Part shown: in pieces, positions 1,326 to 29,451 of the stretch
Layout of the letters: each line of letters begins with the position of its first letter
Numbering within the stretch: position 1 is the first letter of the stretch
Sequence record: NC_104876.1
Length of the DNA stretch: 40,815 bases
Strand: one strand, 5' to 3'
Source: a phage
Notes under the pieces: generated by a model
The model's database searches: none
Seen by the model: the letters and a program-made list of their open reading frames with translations, nothing else
What the model was told of the DNA's origin: nothing
Made by a program: the position numbers and the translations under genes

Positions 1326-2498
1326 TTATGCGTATGTGATACGCTGAATAACAATAGACGACTGGTACTGGTTGCCAGTAGCCTGGCCTTCAATAGACTG
1401 AGTGATTGACTCAGGTCCTCCAATCTCAGGTGTAACCGCGGTAAGTTCTGCACGTTTCAAGCTGAAAGACATAGCCCCGTTTACTCCCGCCAGAATAGAG
1501 TTAATCTCCACCTGCTGCTCGTTGATAAACTTCTGAATCATCGCCATGTCGTACAGCTTACCGGAGATGGAGAAGGTGTTAGCTGCTCGGCTACGCTCCA
1601 CAAACGCTACGTTAGTGTTGCCGAGTTCGAACTGTGCGGACGCGCTGTTGTCGTTGGTGATGGTCAGGCTGTCGCAACGCAACGGCGTAGAACCGTCGAA
1701 CACAGAAACATCGACCGAGGAGAATGGCTCGTCACCAAACGTAACAGAGGAGAAATCAGAACCAGACGGCTGCGTGGTGAGAATCTCCTGACTGCGACCG
1801 ATGAACGGGAAGCTGCCAGTTACCATAGCGTTAACAGCCTGTTCGATGGTAAAACCAGAAACTTCCACGCCTTTGGTTAGTGTGTACGCGTCAGTCCCGC
1901 CGCACTGGCCTTTGTACCAGGTGAGAATAGAGAACGTCTTGCACTGGCTTCCCGTTTCCAGTTTATCCCCTGTCTTAGCGGCGGTAGTTACTGTCTCTGT
2001 GGTCAGGGTATGCTGGATACCCGCCCCGGTCACTACCCGCGCCTCTACTGCAGTTACGATAAACGGTTTTGCGTTGTCACCGGTTAAGCCGGTAAACGCA
2101 ATCAGGTCGCCCACTTCAACGCCGTCAGAAATAAAGCTACCTTCGGCACGGGTAAAGGTCTTGCCTGCAGGCGCGACGGTAATTGATAGCCCGGTCAGAG
2201 AACTACCGGATTGCCATGTAGAGCCTAAAGCACCCGCCAGCCAGTCGTCCTGGCTTTTCGAGCTAAGCTCAATAGCGTATTCTCCGCTAACCTGCTTGTT
2301 ACCGGTGCGGATTGACGTAGTTTCACGGCTGCCGTCCAGTTCGTTGGAGGTCAGCGTGTCGCGGGTAATGGCAGGAACGCCACCTGTGTTACGCAATGGC
2401 GACCAGACCGGGTTAGTCGGTGTTACGCCAGGGGTAGTTTCTGCCACATAGAATTGCGCAGTATTCGCGCCCTTAAAAGGAGTTGTAGCCATATTCAC
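1326..2498 (-). CDS. Major tail (tube) protein, gpV-like
   Basis: N-terminus PFKGANTAQFYVAETTPG resembles the lambda gpV start (PVKGAGTTLWVY) as recalled; 390 aa; last gene of the head-neck operon; start overlaps upstream stop. Confidence 0.5.
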   Translation of the reverse strand: MNMATTPFKGANTAQFYVAETTPGVTPTNPVWSPLRNTGGVPAITRDTLTSNELDGSRETTSIRTGNKQVSGEYAIELSSKSQDDWLAGALGSTWQSGSSLTGLSITVAPAGKTFTRAEGSFISDGVEVGDLIAFTGLTGDNAKPFIVTAVEARVVTGAGIQHTLTTETVTTAAKTGDKLETGSQCKTFSILTWYKGQCGGTDAYTLTKGVEVSGFTIEQAVNAMVTGSFPFIGRSQEILTTQPSGSDFSSVTFGDEPFSSVDVSVFDGSTPLRCDSLTITNDNSASAQFELGNTNVAFVERSRAANTFSISGKLYDMAMIQKFINEQQVEINSILAGVNGAMSFSLKRAELTAVTPEIGGPESITQSIEGQATGNQYQSSIVIQRITYA

Positions 2499-4634: not shown

Positions 4635-4656
4635 TTTGTTTTTACCATCAACCGTA

Positions 4657-5625
4657 TTACAGGTCCGCGTCGGCGATTGCCAGAGTACCGAGAGTGTGCT
4701 TGTTCTCGGCAACAGCTTTGTCCCAGTTGGTCGCGGTGAACAGTTCTGCGTCCAGCGGAGATTTACCGCCGTTGGCGACATCCCAGCTATAGCCTTTCAG
4801 TTTCAGGCCGAAGCTGTAATCTGCCTGCCAGGTGGTCTGGATGCGGGTGTTACCGTTTCTGGTATCAATGTTGCTGATAATGTCAGAAGCATTATCAACG
4901 ATGATGCCGTTTGCAACTACGGACAGGACCTTAGTCTTGTTCGGAGTACCGGCCTCGTACAGCGCAGGAATGTCAGAGATTACGTAACGCTTGCCGAGAA
5001 CATCGACAACCATAACGTTACCAGCAACGAACAGCTGGTTTGCGTTAGTCAGCGCTTTATCTACCAGCGTGTGGTAAGCAGCACCGGTCATGATGTCGGT
5101 AATCAGCAGCTGAGACTGGTCGCCGAATTTAGCGTGGCTGTTGTTCAGCACGTTCAGGGACAGACCCACGGTTGCAGATACGTCGTTAACCAGCGCGGCC
5201 TGACCAGATACCGCCGCAACAGCTGCGCCAACAGCGGTGTTGAGCTGGTCTGCTAACAGCGCATCGGAGAAGCCTTCGGAAATAGCACGAATCGCGCTTG
5301 CCGGGTCTTCGTTAAGCCAGGTCATTTGCGCAGGCTCGAACAGTACCGGTCCGAAGCCGCCAGCGACTTTAACGCCTACATGCTCGCCCTGAGTCAGCGC
5401 GGTAGCTGCCTGAGACGCGATATCGGCGTAACGGTCAACGCGGCGTTTAGCGGAGGCAATCTGGTTAAAGAAAGACTCACGGGAGAAGTCACCGCGCCAT
5501 GAAGCGGTAGACAGTACAATTGCGCCACCGGAGGCTGCGTTAAACTGGTCAGTTTTCTGGCCAAGCAGTTCGATAGTGGTACCGACGATATCGTCGTTAT
5601 AAACCTTCATATCTGACAGAGACAT
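4657..5625 (-). CDS. Major capsid protein
   Basis: 322-aa ORF following the scaffold gene, with its own downstream terminator; position and size typical of a major capsid gene. No family-level motif verified. Confidence 0.55.
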   Translation of the reverse strand: MSLSDMKVYNDDIVGTTIELLGQKTDQFNAASGGAIVLSTASWRGDFSRESFFNQIASAKRRVDRYADIASQAATALTQGEHVGVKVAGGFGPVLFEPAQMTWLNEDPASAIRAISEGFSDALLADQLNTAVGAAVAAVSGQAALVNDVSATVGLSLNVLNNSHAKFGDQSQLLITDIMTGAAYHTLVDKALTNANQLFVAGNVMVVDVLGKRYVISDIPALYEAGTPNKTKVLSVVANGIIVDNASDIISNIDTRNGNTRIQTTWQADYSFGLKLKGYSWDVANGGKSPLDAELFTATNWDKAVAENKHTLGTLAIADADL

Positions 5626-10255: not shown

Positions 10256-11506
10256 TTAAAGTGCGAAAGTCACCGGGATGTTGATTACTGGTTTAACCAC
10301 CGGCATCTCGTAAACTACAGGATAGCCTAGAGCATCCGCCATATGGTCAATGATGCCGTCTTTAGCTGGCTCTCCGTTATCGTCGTATGCCTGCTGCTCC
10401 AGCGTCTTCGCTATCTCAGGGCATAAGTGGTCGTTAATCCACAGTTTACCTTTTTCCAGTGCGGTATTCACGGCTAAAACACGGTCTTTAACCGGAGGGT
10501 TGGCGGATTTAGCGCGAACATCGAAACCTGCCTGCTGGAGTAACGCAATATCTGAGATTGACGCCGAGTTGGTCTTGCGGTTCTTGCCGCTGGCGTCCGG
10601 GTAAACGACTATGCGGTGGCCCTGCGACTTCCACTTCTCAGTAATTACGCGCACGGTATCCGGCGTATCAAACAGACCTTTCAGTTCTGCCACCGCGTGC
10701 CAGCCGTCTTTACGTTGCACATACACGGCGCTGGCGTTCTTCGTAACGTTGAAGTCCTGCCCGATGTACAACGTGTCGCCCGGTTGAATTACCTCTTTGC
10801 TGCGGTGCTTACGGCGGTCATATGCGTAATACACGCTGCCGGAGGTAAGGTTGACGAACTCACCATTCAGATACGCGTTAATCAACTGCGCCGGATAAGT
10901 CTCGGTCAGCGAACTAATGTAGTCAGGTGGCAGGAATCGCGCGTTCTCGTGTGTAGAAGCCTGCACCATCGAGTAACTCGGCGTCGGGTTCTCTTTGAAC
11001 TTGGCGTAGACGAACTTGAACCCTTCCGGTGTCGTGGTGACAGAGATGTGGTTAATTACGCCAGGAATAACAAGACGCATACGGGCCACAATTTTGTTCC
11101 ACGCCAGTTCAGCTTTCTCGCGGCTCAATACATCCAGCTCATCCACGACTGCCGCAGCGATTTTGAAGCCGACGATAGAGCCTGGGTTATCCATCGAACG
11201 GCAGATAACTGTACCGAGCACCGTCTTACCGCGAGTAACCACGACTTCTTTGTCGCCAGATTTAACCAGCACATCGAGGCCGAGCAGGTTAGCGGCTTCC
11301 TCAAATGTCGGGTAGAAGATGTCACGGATAGCCGGGTATGTCGGGCCGAAGTAACCCAGGCGCGTACCTGGATGCTTGAGCATAAACGTAAGCAGGTCAA
11401 GGCAGCCAACAAATGTCTTTCCGCTGCCGAAGCCGCCGACATATGCCTTATATTTGTTATCACAATTCAGGAACAGCGCCTGCGGTGCGGATAGCTGAAT
11501 ACTCAT
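10256..11506 (-). CDS. terL: Terminase large subunit
   Basis: Walker A GGFGSGKT near the N-terminus, 416 aa, overlaps the upstream small-subunit candidate, precedes the portal gene. Confidence 0.75.
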   Translation of the reverse strand: MSIQLSAPQALFLNCDNKYKAYVGGFGSGKTFVGCLDLLTFMLKHPGTRLGYFGPTYPAIRDIFYPTFEEAANLLGLDVLVKSGDKEVVVTRGKTVLGTVICRSMDNPGSIVGFKIAAAVVDELDVLSREKAELAWNKIVARMRLVIPGVINHISVTTTPEGFKFVYAKFKENPTPSYSMVQASTHENARFLPPDYISSLTETYPAQLINAYLNGEFVNLTSGSVYYAYDRRKHRSKEVIQPGDTLYIGQDFNVTKNASAVYVQRKDGWHAVAELKGLFDTPDTVRVITEKWKSQGHRIVVYPDASGKNRKTNSASISDIALLQQAGFDVRAKSANPPVKDRVLAVNTALEKGKLWINDHLCPEIAKTLEQQAYDDNGEPAKDGIIDHMADALGYPVVYEMPVVKPVINIPVTFAL

Positions 11507-24173: not shown

Positions 24174-26354
24174 ATGAGTTACCTGTTCTTAGACTTTGAA
24201 ACATTCTCCGGAGCCGATTTAAAGAAATTCGGCTCCTATGCTTACGCCGAACACCAGACTACCGAAGTGCTTATCTGTACCTATGCTTTTGACGACGAGC
24301 CTGTACAGGTATGGGATTGCACCAACGGCAGCGACATGCCGGGTGATTTGCACCGCGCGTTACGCCGTCTGGTGAAACCAAACAGTCGCATTAAGATGGT
24401 GTGGCACAACGGCTCAATGTTCGACAGGCTCATAATGAAGCATTGCTGGGACTTTGATATTCCGGTAAGCAACACCATTGATACGATGATTTGGGCGTTT
24501 CGTCACGCGCTGCCGGGTTCTCTTGATGCGCTGTGCGAAGTGCTTGGCGTGTCTGCAGACAACGCGAAAGACAAACGAGGCAAAGCGCTTATTCAGCGTT
24601 TCTCTAAACCGACGCCGAAGAACTACAAAATTCGCCGCTACACTGCTGAAACGCACCCGGATGAGTGGGCGCTGTTCATCAAGTACGCCGTTAGCGACAT
24701 CACCGCGATGCGTGAAGTGTTCCATAAGTTGCCGCGTTGGGGTAACTCCGAGTTCGAAGACCGTGTGCTGGAACTGGACCAGTTAATCAACGACCGCGGG
24801 TTTAAGGTTGACGTTGCACTGGCGGAGGCCGCGATTGAAGCCGTGGAGAAACACAAAGCGCAGTTACAGGAAGAAGCCCAACGTAAATACGGCGGCGCGC
24901 TTACCGGAAAGGACTTCCTTCCTATTCTGCGTGAACTCGCACCGGCGCACCGTATTCACAACGCACAGAAGTCTACGCTTAACGACCTGCTTGCTGACGA
25001 TGATTTACCGGACGACGCCCGCACGATTATAGAAATGCGCCTCGGGGCGGCATCCACTGCGTCAACGAAATATAACCCGCTGCTGTTAGGTCGCTCGTCT
25101 GACGACCGCCGTCGCGGTTGCATCCAGTATGGTGGAGCTAAACGTACGTTACGATTTGCGGGTAAAGGCTTCCAGCCGCAGAACCTGGCGCGTGGGTACT
25201 ATCACGATGATGAACTGGATAAAGGTATTTCAGCATTACTTAAGGGCCGAGCACATCGCCGTTTTGATGTAGCCAAGCTAACGGCATCTACGGTTCGCAG
25301 CTGCATTATCCCGGAAGCCGGGCATAAGTTTGTCGTCGCTGACTACTCGAACGTTGAAGGCCGCGGTTTGGCGTGGCTGGCTGGAGAAGAAACCGCGCTT
25401 GATACGTTCCGTGCCGGGCTGGATATTTACTGCGTAACCGCAGGCAAGATGTTCGGCATGGAGCCGGATTACATTAAGAAAGAACGTAAAGACTTACGCC
25501 AGATTGGTAAGGCATGCGAACTTGGACTTGGCTACGCGGGTGGTGTCGGCGCATTCGTACAGTTCGCCAAGAACCTCGGCCTTGACCTTGTTGATATGGC
25601 AAAAACAATGGACGGGACTTTCCCCGACCACATCTGGGCTGCTACCGCACGTGGATATGAGTGGGCGCGTATTCAGGAAGCCAAGCGACCACCACGTCCA
25701 GGTGAAAATGATGACCGACCATCTTATATTCTTGATAAGAAAGTGTGGCGCACCTGTGACGCTATCAAACGCATGTGGCGCGAGGCTCACCCGAAAACAG
25801 TAGCGTTCTGGCGTGATATTGAAGACGCAGCTATGGCGGCTATCCGCAATCCAGGCAAAGAGTTCACCGCGGGGCCGCGGGGAGTTAAGTTTTCGCGCAA
25901 CGTAGAAACGGACAACAACGGCAACAAAGTCGCCGGTTGGTGGTTGCGGATGACGTTGCCGTCGGGCCGCGTTATGTCTTATCCGGGTGTTGGGCTAAGC
26001 GTGTCGAAAGAGACAGACGAAGACGGGAAGGTGTCTACCAACGTGCACATCAAGTACCAGGGCGAAAACCAGTTAACCCGTCAGTGGGGCTTCCAGTACA
26101 CCTACTCTGGTAAACTGGTGGAAAACTGCACTCAGGCGCTGTGCCGTGATTTGTTGGCTAATGCGCTGCTTAACGTAGAAGCAAACGGCTATCCGATTGT
26201 GCTTCATGTTCACGATGAGATTATCTGCGAGACACCAGATTTACCAGAATACAATGTCGCAGAACTGGAACGATTGATGTGCGAATTACCAGAGTGGGCC
26301 GAGGGGTTCCCTCTTGTAGCAGAAGGCGCGGAGATGAAGCGTTATGCCAAGTAA
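24174..26354 (+). CDS. DNA polymerase, family A, with 3'-5' exonuclease domain
   Basis: Exo motifs LFLDFETFS, HNGSMFDRLI, YAVSDI; polymerase motif A DYSNVEGRGLAWLAGEE, motif B RQIGKACELGLGYAGG, motif C HVHDEI; 726 aa. Confidence 0.8.
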   Translation: MSYLFLDFETFSGADLKKFGSYAYAEHQTTEVLICTYAFDDEPVQVWDCTNGSDMPGDLHRALRRLVKPNSRIKMVWHNGSMFDRLIMKHCWDFDIPVSNTIDTMIWAFRHALPGSLDALCEVLGVSADNAKDKRGKALIQRFSKPTPKNYKIRRYTAETHPDEWALFIKYAVSDITAMREVFHKLPRWGNSEFEDRVLELDQLINDRGFKVDVALAEAAIEAVEKHKAQLQEEAQRKYGGALTGKDFLPILRELAPAHRIHNAQKSTLNDLLADDDLPDDARTIIEMRLGAASTASTKYNPLLLGRSSDDRRRGCIQYGGAKRTLRFAGKGFQPQNLARGYYHDDELDKGISALLKGRAHRRFDVAKLTASTVRSCIIPEAGHKFVVADYSNVEGRGLAWLAGEETALDTFRAGLDIYCVTAGKMFGMEPDYIKKERKDLRQIGKACELGLGYAGGVGAFVQFAKNLGLDLVDMAKTMDGTFPDHIWAATARGYEWARIQEAKRPPRPGENDDRPSYILDKKVWRTCDAIKRMWREAHPKTVAFWRDIEDAAMAAIRNPGKEFTAGPRGVKFSRNVETDNNGNKVAGWWLRMTLPSGRVMSYPGVGLSVSKETDEDGKVSTNVHIKYQGENQLTRQWGFQYTYSGKLVENCTQALCRDLLANALLNVEANGYPIVLHVHDEIICETPDLPEYNVAELERLMCELPEWAEGFPLVAEGAEMKRYAK

Positions 26355-26710
26355 ACTGATTATCGCGGTACTGGCGGGATTTGCTGCCGGTGTCTACTGT
26401 CACGAGGGTCAATACGGCATGATGGTTGCCATATTGGGCATGTTCATCGCAATTTATCTGTGGGTGCTGGAATGAAAATTTACTGGTTTTATGAAGAAGA
26501 CTGTCGAATCTGCCCGCGCTGTGGTATTGAACATACGAAACGTGAGGGGTGCGTATTATGACAATGTTTGTATTTTGGACGATAGTAACCATGCTCGCGC
26601 TGTTACTCGGTGCGGGAATAGCCGCGATGTTCTGTTACGGCCTGTTCTTTAAGTTTGTCGGTGTCGCCGTTCTAGGAGGGGCTTTCCTTACTTGGGTTCT
26701 ACGCTCATGA
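26344..26710 (+). other. Three tiny translationally coupled ORFs: 43-aa membrane peptide (26344-26475), 29-aa Cys-ribbon peptide (26472-26561), 50-aa membrane peptide (26558-26710)
   Basis: Each start overlaps the preceding stop (ATGA). Two are strongly hydrophobic; the middle one has CRICPRCG. None is in the track (under 60 aa). Confidence 0.3.
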
Positions 26711-26991
26711 CTAAAGAGGGCCGCGTACAGAAATACGCAAAAGACCGATTCGAGGCCCTTGGCGGCCTCGTTCGCAAACTCTCCTACGAGGGGCGTTCCG
26801 GCGCCCCAGACCTGCTGGTAATTCTCCCCGGCGGCATAGTCTGGTTCGTCGAGGTTAAGAAAGACGAGAACACGAAGCCAGACCCGCACCAGCTACGGGA
26901 ACATGAGCGGATGCGTAAACGTGGTGCGAATGTTTTTGTCGTTGGTTCGTTTAAACAGGTTGACGACCTAATAGCTAGCTATTATAGTTAG
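26707..26991 (+). CDS. VRR-NUC domain nuclease
   Basis: GAPDLLVILPGGIVWFVEVKK...HQLREH...RGANVFVV matches the VRR-NUC PD-(D/E)XK pattern. Start set to ATG 26707, coupled to the upstream small ORF. Confidence 0.55.
   Translation: MTKEGRVQKYAKDRFEALGGLVRKLSYEGRSGAPDLLVILPGGIVWFVEVKKDENTKPDPHQLREHERMRKRGANVFVVGSFKQVDDLIASYYS
26960..26988 (+). promoter_or_regulatory. Promoter TTGACG-N17-TATAGT with perfect 16-bp palindrome TAATAGCTAGCTATTA, located inside the 3' end of the VRR-NUC gene
   Basis: -35 26960-26965, -10 26983-26988; palindrome 26969-26984. Confidence 0.55.
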
Positions 26992-27021
26992 TCCTACACC
27001 AACAATATAAGGAATTGAGAA

Positions 27022-27213
27022 ATGAAACACGAATATGACCGCAAACCAGCACGTGACATCGTACCGGGTGACATGATTTTCAACGTTAAGACCCGCCACC
27101 CTGTTGCCGTTGATACGGTGTTCGTCGAGTCGAACGGTAAACTGGTTATCGAAGATGTAACAGGAAACGTTACGGCGTTCGGGCGTAAGGAACTGGTTCT
27201 GGTGGCGAAATGA
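27022..27213 (+). CDS. Hypothetical protein
   Basis: 63-aa ORF, ATGA overlap with next gene. Confidence 0.4.
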   Translation: MKHEYDRKPARDIVPGDMIFNVKTRHPVAVDTVFVESNGKLVIEDVTGNVTAFGRKELVLVAK

Positions 27214-28034
27214 ACTATTACAACGAATGGGATAAAGGCGCAGCCGCGTGGCTGCGTGAATTAATAAAACATGGTCACATACCTTTTGGAGTTGTAGATG
27301 AAAGAAGCATTACCGAAGTTAAGCCAGAAGACCTTGACGGGTTCACCCAGTGTCATTTTTTCGCTGGTATCGGCGGCTGGCCTCTCGCGCTCAGACTTGC
27401 GGGAGTTTCGGAGGATACGCCTCTCTGGACGGGAAGCCCGCCTTGCCAACCGTTTAGCACGGCAGGAAAACAACTCGGACAGTTCGACCAGAGACACCTC
27501 GCGCCGGTCTTCCTCGACCTCATCAGCGAGTGCCGCCCTCCAGTCATCTTTGGGGAGCAGGTTGCGGCAGCAATTGCAAAATCGTGGATGTGCGATTTAC
27601 AAGCTCACCTGGAAGGAGAAGACTACGCCGTCGGGTTTGCTGTACTCCCAGCTTGTAGCGTCGGCGCACCGCACAAAAGAGAACGACTCTTCTTTGGCGC
27701 GCACGAACTGGCCTACACCGACAGCGAACGACTTCAGAGGGAGCGGAGAGACAGTGATTCGCACGGACGGGAGAGACAGAACATTCGACAGGCTGGACTA
27801 CTCAACAGAGCAGGGATTGAAAGCGAGTCAACCAACCCGCACCACGGCTTCTGGTCAGATGCTGACTGGCTCGGATGCCGTGATGGAAAGTTCCGGCCGG
27901 TTGAACCCGGCGCATTCCCGCTGGCTAATGGGATACCCGCAAGAGTGGGACGATTGCGCGGTTACGGCAATGCCATCGTCCCGCAAGTAGCCGCCGAATT
28001 TATAAAGGCGTTTATGGGGGCCGTAAATGAGTAA
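27210..28034 (+). CDS. DNA (cytosine-5)-methyltransferase-like protein; reading frame appears interrupted (possible pseudogene or sequence error)
   Basis: Frame of 27210 carries motif [44 protein letters not shown] and [10 protein letters not shown]. Motif IX-like [17 protein letters not shown] lies in the +1 frame (27298..27990). Confidence 0.5.
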
Positions 28035-29451
28035 GTTTCAAAGGCGCGAATACCAGAAGCTCATGACTTCGTTCATGCTGCAACACCATCGCTGTAATAT
28101 TTGGGCGAGCATGGGCGCCGGGAAGACTGGCAGCGTCCTGTGGACTTTAAACCGCCTGTTCCGCAACGGGCAACTTACGGACGACGACCGCGTGTTAATT
28201 CTCGCCCCGTTGCGCGTTGCATCAGGTACATGGCCGGCAGAACAAGAGAAATGGCGATTCCCGTGCCTGCGCGTCGTAGATGCGACCGGGTCAGAGAAGC
28301 GCCGCATCGCGGCACTGGAGTCTGATGCTAACGTGGTGTGCACTAACTACGAAGTTATCGAGTGGCTGATCGACTACTACGGCAAAGATGACTGGCCTTT
28401 TACGGTTATCGTTGCCGATGAGAGCACGAAGCTGAAATCATTCCGCAGCCGTTCAGGTGGTAGCAAGCGGGCAAAGGCGCTCAGTAAGGTGGCGTTTGGA
28501 AAGGTTAAGCGTTTTATAAACCTTACCGGCACGCCATCACCAAACGGCCTCAAGGACTTGTGGGGTCAGAACTGGTTTATCGACGCTGGCGAACGCCTAG
28601 GGTCCTCATATACGGCATTCACCGACCGATGGTTTAACTCGGTACAGAAAGGTAAGTCAGCGATGGCGCGTGAGTATCATGCGCGCCCGGGTGCGGATAA
28701 TGAGATTCATCAGAAGATGAAAGACATCAGTCTCACGATTGACGCCGCCGAGTGGTTCGGATGTGAAGCGCCGATTATTGTACCGGTTGAAATCGACCTG
28801 CCGAAGAAGGCGCGCCAGGCGTACATTGATATGGAGGAGAAGCTATTCGCGGAACTGGAGAGCGGAGAAGTTGAAGCGGCTAATGCGGCAGCGAAGACGT
28901 CGAAGTGCCTACAGATTGCATCCGGTGCCGTGTATGTGTCAGGGCCAGACGGTGAAGCAACGAAAGACTGGGAGAAAGTGCACGACACGAAACTGGATGC
29001 GCTCGAGTCCATTGTTGAGGAGTTACAGGGGGCGCCGTTACTGGTCGCCTATCAGTTCAAGCACGAACTGGAGCGCATCCTCAAGCGCTTCCCGCAGGCG
29101 CAGGCTTTTGCAAAAGGCGCGAAGGGCAATAAGCAGATGGAAGCGTGGAACCGTGGCGAAATCGAAATCCTATGCGTGCACCCCGCGTCAGCCGGCCATG
29201 GTTTGAATTTACAGGACGGCGGACATCATCTGGCGTTTATTTCGCAAGGCTGGAACCTTGAGCACTATTTGCAGGTTGTCGAGCGTATAGGCCCGGTGCG
29301 CCAGAAGCAGGCGGGCCACGAGCGACCAGTGTTCCTCTATCACATCGTTGCTAAAGACACGCTGGACGAGGTTGTTGCCTCGCGTACTGACGAGAAGAAA
29401 TCGGTCCAGGAAGAGTTGCTTAATTACATGAAGAGACGAGGTAAGAAATGA
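28027..29451 (+). CDS. SNF2-family helicase
   Basis: Walker A SMGAGKTG, DExx box VIVADEST, C-terminal helicase domain; 474 aa; overlaps methyltransferase stop. Confidence 0.65.
   Translation: MSKFQRREYQKLMTSFMLQHHRCNIWASMGAGKTGSVLWTLNRLFRNGQLTDDDRVLILAPLRVASGTWPAEQEKWRFPCLRVVDATGSEKRRIAALESDANVVCTNYEVIEWLIDYYGKDDWPFTVIVADESTKLKSFRSRSGGSKRAKALSKVAFGKVKRFINLTGTPSPNGLKDLWGQNWFIDAGERLGSSYTAFTDRWFNSVQKGKSAMAREYHARPGADNEIHQKMKDISLTIDAAEWFGCEAPIIVPVEIDLPKKARQAYIDMEEKLFAELESGEVEAANAAAKTSKCLQIASGAVYVSGPDGEATKDWEKVHDTKLDALESIVEELQGAPLLVAYQFKHELERILKRFPQAQAFAKGAKGNKQMEAWNRGEIEILCVHPASAGHGLNLQDGGHHLAFISQGWNLEHYLQVVERIGPVRQKQAGHERPVFLYHIVAKDTLDEVVASRTDEKKSVQEELLNYMKRRGKK

Follow-up and report, generated by a model that had tools for sequence, protein, structure and literature searches.

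What kind of enzyme is specified by a methyltransferase-like gene whose motifs stand out of their usual order? The question is raised by an open reading frame (ORF) at 27210-28034 (+) of NC_104876.1, the 40,815-nucleotide phage sequence that we call the window. The initial annotation of this ORF, made from sequence alone, placed motif I of the DNA (cytosine-5) methyltransferases (C5-methyltransferases) just before motif IV, after an N-terminal segment resembling motifs II and III, and proposed either a segmentally permuted methyltransferase or a domain used for something other than methylation. We refer to the 274-aa product of this ORF as alpha and to that of a second ORF lying inside it (27298-27990 [+], 230 aa) as beta; both names are those of this analysis. 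It is probable, in our judgment, that the locus encodes a two-subunit orphan C5-methyltransferase specified by one DNA stretch read in two frames.

Motif I of alpha lies directly upstream of motif IV

In alpha, NEWDK lies at residues 5-9, SITEVK at residues 33-38, the motif I stretch at residues 50-65, and PPCQPFS at residues 77-83, giving an order in which a motif II/III segment (residues 1-43) is followed by motif I (residues 44-68) and then directly by the PCQ of motif IV. From F51 of motif I to C79 the distance is 28 residues, compared with 63 residues from F18 to C81 in M.HhaI. PF00145 recognizes alpha with a score of 62.9 bits (cutoff, 22), aligning residues 72-169 only to positions 64-165 of its 324, and TIGR00675 aligns residues 3-166 to profile positions 25-161, with the N terminus of alpha on motif II and the motif I of the model unmatched. 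A phmmer comparison with M.HhaI returned three pieces that are not colinear (alpha 35-66 on HhaI 2-33, alpha 3-27 on HhaI 37-59, and alpha 75-162 on HhaI 77-168). When an alignment of 80 family members was compared with M.HhaI using hhalign (probability, 98%; E = 2.8e-13; alpha 37-170 on HhaI 4-178), alpha 37-68 was placed on HhaI 4-35 (motif I and helix A), HhaI 36-70 (motifs II and III) was skipped, and the alignment resumed at PCQ.

Moving the motif I segment in silico, with residues 44-68 placed before residues 2-43, raised the score of alpha from 62.9 to 88.4 bits against PF00145 and from 40.8 to 68.3 bits against TIGR00675, and with both profiles the un-permuted protein gave one colinear alignment running from profile position 4-5 to profile position 161-165. 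In the PF00145 controls, deletion of segment 44-68 gave 69.0 bits (positions 27-165 aligned) and moving a scrambled copy of it gave 68.6 bits; since the scrambled copy scores about the same as the deletion, the gain is specific to the real motif I sequence at its canonical position. The same operation raised the PF00145 scores of four distant relatives, N15 gp58 (56.3 to 63.6 bits), epsilon15 (54.3 to 77.3 bits), EBPR podovirus 2 (50.4 to 70.5 bits), and a Xanthomonas phage (55.0 to 78.6 bits), and gains of 7 to 27 bits were seen in all five of the proteins tried. Sequence positions, phmmer, TIGR00675, hhalign, and un-permutation all agree with the motif placement of the initial annotation.

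These results bear on a conventional reading of alpha, in which the order is canonical, the likeness of the N terminus to motif II is due to chance, motif I is missing or the true start lies upstream, and FFAGIGG has been inserted ahead of motif IV. The N-terminal phmmer pieces are indeed weak when taken alone (7.1 and -1.6 bits; 5.2 bits with a profile). We nevertheless regard this reading as extremely unlikely, because hhalign lays FFAGIGG on the motif I of M.HhaI and passes over HhaI 36-70, because the gain on un-permutation is seen in 5/5 proteins and not with the scrambled control, and because all relatives begin M-x(1-10)-YYNE, whatever gene lies upstream. The possibility of an upstream start or a split motif I was rejected, as the ORF upstream (63 aa) is read in a different frame and is a member of phrog_4879, an unrelated family.

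Across the 80 homologues, N5, E6, D30, R32, S33, I34, Q47, C48, H49, F51, A52, G53, I54, G55, P78, C79, and Q80 are invariant, as are E116, R157, and R159. Alpha E6 corresponds to E40 of M.HhaI, D30 corresponds to D60, and F51-x-G53-x-G55, which constitutes motif I, is aligned to HhaI FAGLGG; the catalytic cysteine is C79, FGEQV contains E116, motif VIII contains R157 and R159, and the segment from motif VI to motif VIII is aligned to HhaI FMENV ... GIPQKRERIYM. Alpha exceeds the PF00145 threshold and has motif I, the PCQ of motif IV, and motifs VI and VIII, and the canonical order I, II, III, IV is absent from it. With its S-adenosylmethionine (AdoMet)-binding and catalytic residues all kept, alpha is predicted to be a C5-methyltransferase catalytic domain, presumably an active one, and nothing points to the use other than methylation that the initial annotation had offered as an alternative.

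As judged by sequence and profile comparisons, the segmental permutation of alpha is a trait of the whole family, and the permuted methyltransferase first suggested for this one gene is supported family-wide. By its motif order the permutation is a non-circular swap, in which the block containing motifs II and III and the block containing motif I are exchanged and the putative motif X is still C-terminal; we found no description of such a non-circular permutation of a C5-methyltransferase in the literature searched. The motif assignment of the initial annotation, made by likeness to M.HhaI, holds against the profiles, and no alignment in canonical order with normal spacing appeared. The PF00145 alignment, AlphaFold modeling, and comparison of homologues that it had called for gave, respectively, the permuted order, predicted elements of the large domain (see below), and a trait kept in the 80 homologues.

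Alpha is without a folded target-recognition domain

In an AlphaFold2 (AF2) model of alpha based on the family alignment, the mean predicted local distance difference test score (pLDDT) in 10-residue blocks is 81 to 96 over residues 1-80. The predicted elements there are a strand (residues 2-5), a helix (9-20), a strand (27-30), a short helix (39-42), a strand (47-50), a helix (56-63), and a strand (72-75), after which come the usual elements of motifs VI to VIII; strand 47-50 and helix 56-63 have a pLDDT of 86 to 96. In the order of the subdomain that we propose, strand 2, helix B, and strand 3 would lead, and strand 1, the Gly loop, and helix A would come after them, ahead of motif IV. On this model, alpha is predicted to be a complete large domain with a segmentally permuted N-terminal subdomain, the order of strands in the sheet being deduced from the prediction.

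From motif VIII to about residue 210, alpha is poorly conserved and its alignment contains many gaps. Block-mean pLDDT falls from 62 to 29 over the linker at residues 166-212, being below 50 from residue 185, and residues 185-251 are mostly below 50 (segments 185-224, 226-228, and 230-251). The C-terminal helix at residues 258-273, assigned to a putative motif X, has block means of 94 (residues 261-270) and 85 (residues 271-274). The motif X region (residues 251-264) lies outside every profile alignment; within it Y252-G253-N254 is invariant, as are W215, D219, W220, C223, D225, R229, P230, V231, and E232 upstream, and A255 and I256 are nearly so. No recognizable target-recognition domain or motif IX lies between motifs VIII and X of the alpha chain, and no PF00145 or TIGR00675 alignment of alpha extends past profile positions 161-165. 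At the position of motif IX, alpha reads as the proline-rich AFPLANGIP, where the constraint follows the beta frame. Alpha is, then, a chain without a folded target-recognition domain. In the alpha of epsilon15, about 16 additional aa (RLGRVEPGVARVASSN) are inserted immediately ahead of motif X, and they resemble a locally duplicated copy of the VEPG…RVG segment that precedes them.

A second gene is probably embedded in the +1 frame

The initial annotation had overlooked both the lack of a target-recognition domain and motif IX in alpha and the presence of a conserved gene embedded in the +1 frame, probably encoding a second subunit. The frame was surveyed in about 80 IMG/VR loci whose alpha proteins are 45 to 80% identical to that of the window (GC content, 0.49 to 0.71). 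The +1 frame is open over 65 to 100% of the gene in these loci, whereas the longest open stretch in the +2 frame covers 8 to 48%, and mostly 10 to 30%. When codons were shuffled synonymously, keeping the alpha proteins, the observed +1 open length was reached in 390 of 14,800 trials, the mean open length of the shuffled sequences being 136 codons in the +1 frame and 69 codons in the +2 frame. The beta ORF regularly starts 60 to 110 nt past the alpha start and stops 5 to 60 nt before the alpha stop. In half of the loci (33/66) the D30 codon has an ATG at its +1 position; elsewhere a Met comes a few codons later.

Codon-position entropies from a codon alignment of 70 loci show where each frame is constrained. 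Entropy at alpha third positions is 1.3 to 1.8 bits over residues 3-106, the level of ordinary single-frame constraint, about 1.0 over residues 107-154, and 0.38 to 1.13 over residues 219-250; at alpha residues 235-242 it is the first codon position, which is the third position of beta, that varies most. Periodicity of the beta type is found at residues 97-104 (YKLTW; 0.62/0.72/1.16), 137-144 (WPTP; 0.99/0.88/1.46), and 209-216 (WLMGYP; 0.39/0.51/1.07), and the most conserved block of beta is its motif IX-like block, while residues 1-72 of beta show alpha constraint only. Because codon-position constraint alternates between the frames, the conserved blocks of alpha and beta interleave along the DNA. 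In these alignments the disordered alpha linker (residues 166-212) shadows the beta modules, just as the loose N terminus of beta shadows alpha motifs I to IV. Overall, the comparison of loci establishes that the +1 frame is open and selectively constrained across very diverse phages.

The +1 ORF could nevertheless be a non-gene, a by-product of the composition and codon usage of alpha carried forward as an annotation artifact, with alpha alone being the enzyme. In line with such an origin, synonymous shuffling still leaves the +1 frame more open than the +2 frame, only alpha-type constraint is seen in the first 75 or so residues of beta, beta has no match in Pfam or the PDB, and the NCBI Prokaryotic Genome Annotation Pipeline (PGAP) annotates alpha only in bacterial genomes. 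We consider it unlikely, since some 80 diverged loci, spanning a GC content of 0.36 to 0.71 and several bacterial phyla, keep the frame open, since synonymous variation in alpha drops exactly where beta is conserved, with beta-type periodicity at three blocks, and since alpha has no recognition domain of its own. There is also an experimental precedent in M.EcoHK31I, reported in the descriptions available to be the one characterized C5 enzyme whose beta chain is specified within the gene for alpha.

Beta belongs to a large family with repeated W-x-T-P modules

Beta matches phrog_1008 with an E value of 3.7e-54, and databases contain 3,453 homologues of it, with its full length covered down to an identity of 52%. 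Run against a library of 1.84 billion representatives, a profile of beta retrieved 15,130 clusters (E <= 1e-3), 4,778 of them with E <= 1e-30. Members of the family carry 1 to 5 copies of a (G/A)W-x-T-P-x-A-x-D module, the number of copies tracks the length of beta (r = 0.72), and the lengths of alpha and beta co-vary (r = 0.83). Modeled alone with AF2, beta has a helix and hairpin at residues 76-125 and, beyond these, a short helix at residues 204-211. The only hhalign match of the beta family on M.HhaI, a weak one, places beta 197-218 on HhaI 269-290, which is motif IX (E = 0.096; probability, 0.6%). Matches of beta to chalcone synthase were dismissed as noise (E of 0.3 or more). Among the inspected phage loci and the 10 longest beta representatives there were no single-chain relatives with beta in frame after alpha. 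Two of these 10 representatives carry C-terminal fusions, one to a Dam N6-adenine methyltransferase (PF05869; P0315) and one to a DUF2800/PD-(D/E)XK nuclease (P0323).

Alpha and beta might both be made and yet do unrelated jobs, beta being, for example, an overprinted antidefense or DNA-binding protein. Such a role would fit two observations: no methyltransferase profile resembles beta to a significant degree, and the fusions just described join some of its representatives to unrelated modules. The proposal is doubtful, with a small but appreciable chance of being correct, given that beta overlaps alpha in every locus in which both frames were examined, whether alpha is permuted or canonical. 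Moreover, the parts that alpha misses, a recognition domain and motif IX, fit what beta appears to offer, motif IX is the best single local match of beta on M.HhaI, and M.EcoHK31I, as described, again provides a precedent for a beta chain that serves the same enzyme.

A two-subunit methyltransferase is the preferred reading

The conserved blocks can also be read as one chain. If alpha is followed to motif VIII, beta from WPTP through the recognition region to motif IX, and alpha again for motif X, they fall into canonical order and spacing: motif VIII ends at 27695 and WPTP begins at 27706, and the motif IX of beta ends at 27948 and the alpha GYGNAIVP begins at 27960. This counts against two subunits and for a single-chain enzyme whose translation involves two programmed frameshifts, one of +1 to enter the beta frame and one of -1 to return. 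We judge such an enzyme very improbable. The blocks interleave more than twice, the YKLTWK of beta lying upstream of alpha motif VIII and the alpha hairpin lying inside the C-terminal region of beta. Frameshifting would not need a beta frame that is open, as it is in most loci, from about 60 to 110 nt into the alpha gene until shortly before its stop. Beta has a Shine-Dalgarno sequence and ATG of its own, and the characterized analogue M.EcoHK31I, as described, consists of two separate polypeptides. The start of beta, the regular limits of its ORF, and the interleaving of the blocks therefore favor independent initiation over frameshifting.

In a two-subunit enzyme, alpha would bind AdoMet through E6, D30, F51-G55, and motif X, and C79, E116, and R157/R159 of alpha would carry out catalysis. 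Beta would be made as a separate polypeptide from its own GGAG-ATG start and would dock on alpha, perhaps through the helix and hairpin of beta and the conserved hairpin within alpha residues 214-264, supplying a motif IX hinge helix and the W-x-T-P modules as DNA-reading elements. The complex would methylate phage DNA, and host DNA too, and so would protect the phage from restriction. Translation of beta, its association with alpha, the location of specificity in beta, and enzyme activity are all steps that we infer; the most likely function of the locus is that of an alpha/beta heterodimer protecting phage DNA.

Several observations weigh against this reading. Production of beta in this phage is something we infer from its sequence features, and the three-dimensional order of strands in the permuted subdomain of alpha is a presumed one. 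The AF2 model of beta alone is poor (mean pLDDT, 53), and searches of Pfam, NCBIfam, and the PDB with single sequence and profile gave beta no meaningful match. The assignment of motif IX to beta, with its hhalign E value of 0.096, lies below significance and is suggestive only. Chimeras joining alpha 1-166, beta 133-218, and alpha 249-274 gain only about 2 bits on PF00145, and nothing in them was aligned C-terminally. The likeness to M.EcoHK31I is one of architecture as described in the accounts available, and in those accounts the predicted recognition domain is assigned to alpha and not to beta, whereas the alpha of the window has none.

The nested pair is widespread

Nested alpha and beta frames are also found in phage N15 (the gp58 locus), Klebsiella phage VLCpiM12a, Pseudomonas PMG1, Rhodobacter RcMrWorf, EBPR podovirus 2, Salmonella epsilon15, Xanthomonas PhiXhv-28, and an acidobacterial Tunturiibacter phage. 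In PMG1, over 1000-2020 of the locus as deposited, one frameshift close to 'DERSI' interrupts alpha and only beta is annotated, as 'DNA methyltransferase'; the break is either a sequencing error or the mark of an alpha pseudogene with beta intact. Plasmid p05 of Bacillus thuringiensis HD-771 encodes at 991-1731 a 246-aa Dcm (GC content, 36%) that has no recognition domain and has its motifs in the canonical order I-II-III-IV, and this gene carries a +1 ORF of about 130 to 150 codons (…YLTWK…LLPTPTAS…YLNPNYAELLMGFPIKWTDLEA). Because the alpha of the B. thuringiensis pair is canonical in order, the alpha/beta overlap appears to be older and wider than the permutation. A search of the literature for overlapping phage methyltransferase genes and for N15 gp58 found nothing relevant.

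We put forward tentatively, as somewhat less than an even chance, that the gene-within-gene design supposed to be unique to M.EcoHK31I is in fact ancient and a main architecture among the C5-methyltransferases of phages and prophages. It would comprise at least 15,000 beta clusters at 50% identity, from phages of Proteobacteria and Acidobacteria and a Bacillus plasmid, with a recognition subunit of 1 to 5 W-x-T-P modules encoded in the +1 frame over 650 to 1,200 nt of the gene for the catalytic subunit, and with a large branch in phages of Proteobacteria carrying the first natural non-circular permutation of the AdoMet subdomain. If this is true, the pairs would be among the longest and most widespread same-strand overlapping gene pairs in prokaryotic viruses, and the overlapping alpha/beta design would be that of a large family and no longer a curiosity of one enzyme. 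Standard annotation would largely miss the pair, beta having no Pfam family and PGAP calling alpha only, and thousands of beta ORFs would have been dropped or labeled as separate 'methyltransferases'. Specificity would sit in a frame that pipelines ignore, and phage and prophage methylomes would need to be read again. For the evolution of overlapping genes, the pair would offer a deep and well-sampled case in which the disordered linker of each protein is a functional segment of the other. The C5-methyltransferase fold would tolerate exchange of strand 2/strand 3 with strand 1 and helix A in a non-circular manner, with the cofactor contacts kept, and natural heterodimeric C5-methyltransferases are of the kind already exploited for split-enzyme targeted methylation.

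Locus and neighboring genes

Over 26600-28600 the window shares 97% identity with Escherichia phage K1G (Kagunavirus, Guernseyvirinae), in whose record alpha is labeled 'putative C-specific methylase' and the embedded beta is labeled 'putative Mte8-like protein'. The one relevant literature match for Mte8 was a phage genomics paper that names a 'putative Mte8-like protein' and says no more of it. ORF 27210-28034 sits in the replication module (Table 1), where it is tightly joined to both neighbors, its start overlapping the stop of the 63-aa ORF (ATGA) and its stop overlapping the start of the helicase (ATGAGTAA). Such junctions suggest translational coupling through the module.

Compared with window positions 26692-28034, Salmonella Jersey-like phages (SETP3 and SETP7 among many) match the flanking nuclease and helicase and not the methyltransferase, in whose position an HNH endonuclease or nothing is annotated. 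Because these related phages match the flanks only, the alpha/beta cassette looks like a swappable accessory module. Elsewhere in the window, long ORFs are nested in antisense at 10616-11494 (+) in 10256-11506 (-) and at 1801-2451 (+) in 1326-2498 (-), and a further antisense pair is formed by 4636-5256 (+) and 4657-5625 (-); these arrangements may be due to chance. A search for tRNA genes found none in the window.

Table 1. Positions in the window of alpha, beta, their parts, and the adjoining genes
Feature	Coordinates	Strand	Remarks
DNA polymerase	24174-26354		Replication module
VRR-NUC-type nuclease	26692-26991		Replication module
63-aa ORF (phrog_4879)	27022-27213		Function unknown; other frame than alpha
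Alpha	27210-28034	+	Predicted C5-cytosine methyltransferase large/catalytic domain; N-terminal motif order permuted
Alpha residues 3-34	27216-27311	+	Motif II-like YYNEWD (E6), helix, motif III-like VVDERSI (D30); N-terminal instead of after motif I
Beta start	27288-27300	+	GGAG 27288-27291, 6-nt spacer, ATG 27298; within alpha codons G27-V-V-D30-E31
Beta	27298-27990	+	Inside alpha, +1 frame
Alpha residues 44-68	27339-27413	+	Motif I and helix A, displaced to directly upstream of motif IV
Alpha residues 75-83	27432-27458	+	Motif IV with catalytic Cys79; aligned to HhaI GFPCQAFS
Beta residues 76-125	27523-27672	+	Predicted helix and beta-hairpin (YKLTWK); AF2 pLDDT 78-87
Alpha residues 114-162	27549-27695	+	Motif VI (FGEQV) to motif VIII; dual-coding with beta residues 85-133
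Alpha residues 166-212	27705-27845	+	Low-complexity linker of variable length
Beta residues 137-150	27706-27747	+	W-x-T-P module, one copy; proposed DNA-recognition module (putative role)
Alpha residues 214-264	27849-28001	+	Conserved hairpin, shadow of beta motif IX-like block (AFPLANGIP), then putative motif X
Beta residues 201-217	27898-27948	+	Motif IX-like helix (LNPxHSRWLMGxPxEW)
SNF2-type helicase	28027-29451		Replication module

Comparison with known methyltransferases

M.EcoHK31I, a YGGCCR-specific C5-methyltransferase of E. coli, needs both an alpha and a beta chain (Lee, Kam & Shaw 1995, as cited in PMC2836561 and PMC3404938); its alpha is described as containing motifs I to VIII, motif X, and a predicted recognition domain, and its beta as containing motif IX (PMC2836561, PMC3404938). 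The pair in the window is likened to it by this described architecture and not by sequence: beta lies inside the alpha gene in another frame, beta has an N-terminal part that is either dispensable or under loose constraint, and motifs I to VIII and X are in alpha, here with I and II/III permuted. It differs in the permuted N terminus of alpha, which is not reported for M.EcoHK31I in the accounts given in PMC2836561 and PMC3404938. Compared with M.EcoHK31I as described there, the beta of the window is also much larger, nearly as long as alpha (230 versus 274 aa), and appears to carry the recognition modules, and the enzyme is an orphan of a phage replication module and not the partner of a restriction-modification system. 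A tblastn search of plasmids did not identify M.EcoHK31I. M.AquI is a natural two-chain C5-methyltransferase split near the variable region, one subunit having motifs I to VIII and part of that region and the other having the rest of it with motifs IX and X (PMC3404938). In the window, by contrast, motif X stays in alpha and the beta gene is nested in that of alpha in the +1 frame.

The circularly permuted ('type H') C5-methyltransferases M.BssHII, M.Alw26I, M2.Eco31I, M.Esp3I, and M2.BsaI, in which motifs IX and X come before motifs I to VIII (PMC5944983), are like alpha in being natural C5 enzymes with motifs out of the I-to-X order. The arrangement of IX and X before I is not that of alpha, in which the N terminus is motif II-like and the putative motif X lies at residues 251-264. 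All of the natural permuted C5 enzymes listed in the literature that we found are circular over the whole chain, with IX and X before I. Compared with M.HhaI and the other PF00145 monomers, alpha has the order II/III, I, IV and no small domain in the same chain. The Bacillus phage methyltransferases of SPR, phi3T, and rho11s are multispecific orphan C5 enzymes whose single chain carries, from motif VIII to motif IX, a variable number of tandem recognition modules; in the family described here, by contrast, the W-x-T-P repeats, numbering 1 to 5 and with a putative role in specificity, lie in the overlapping beta frame.

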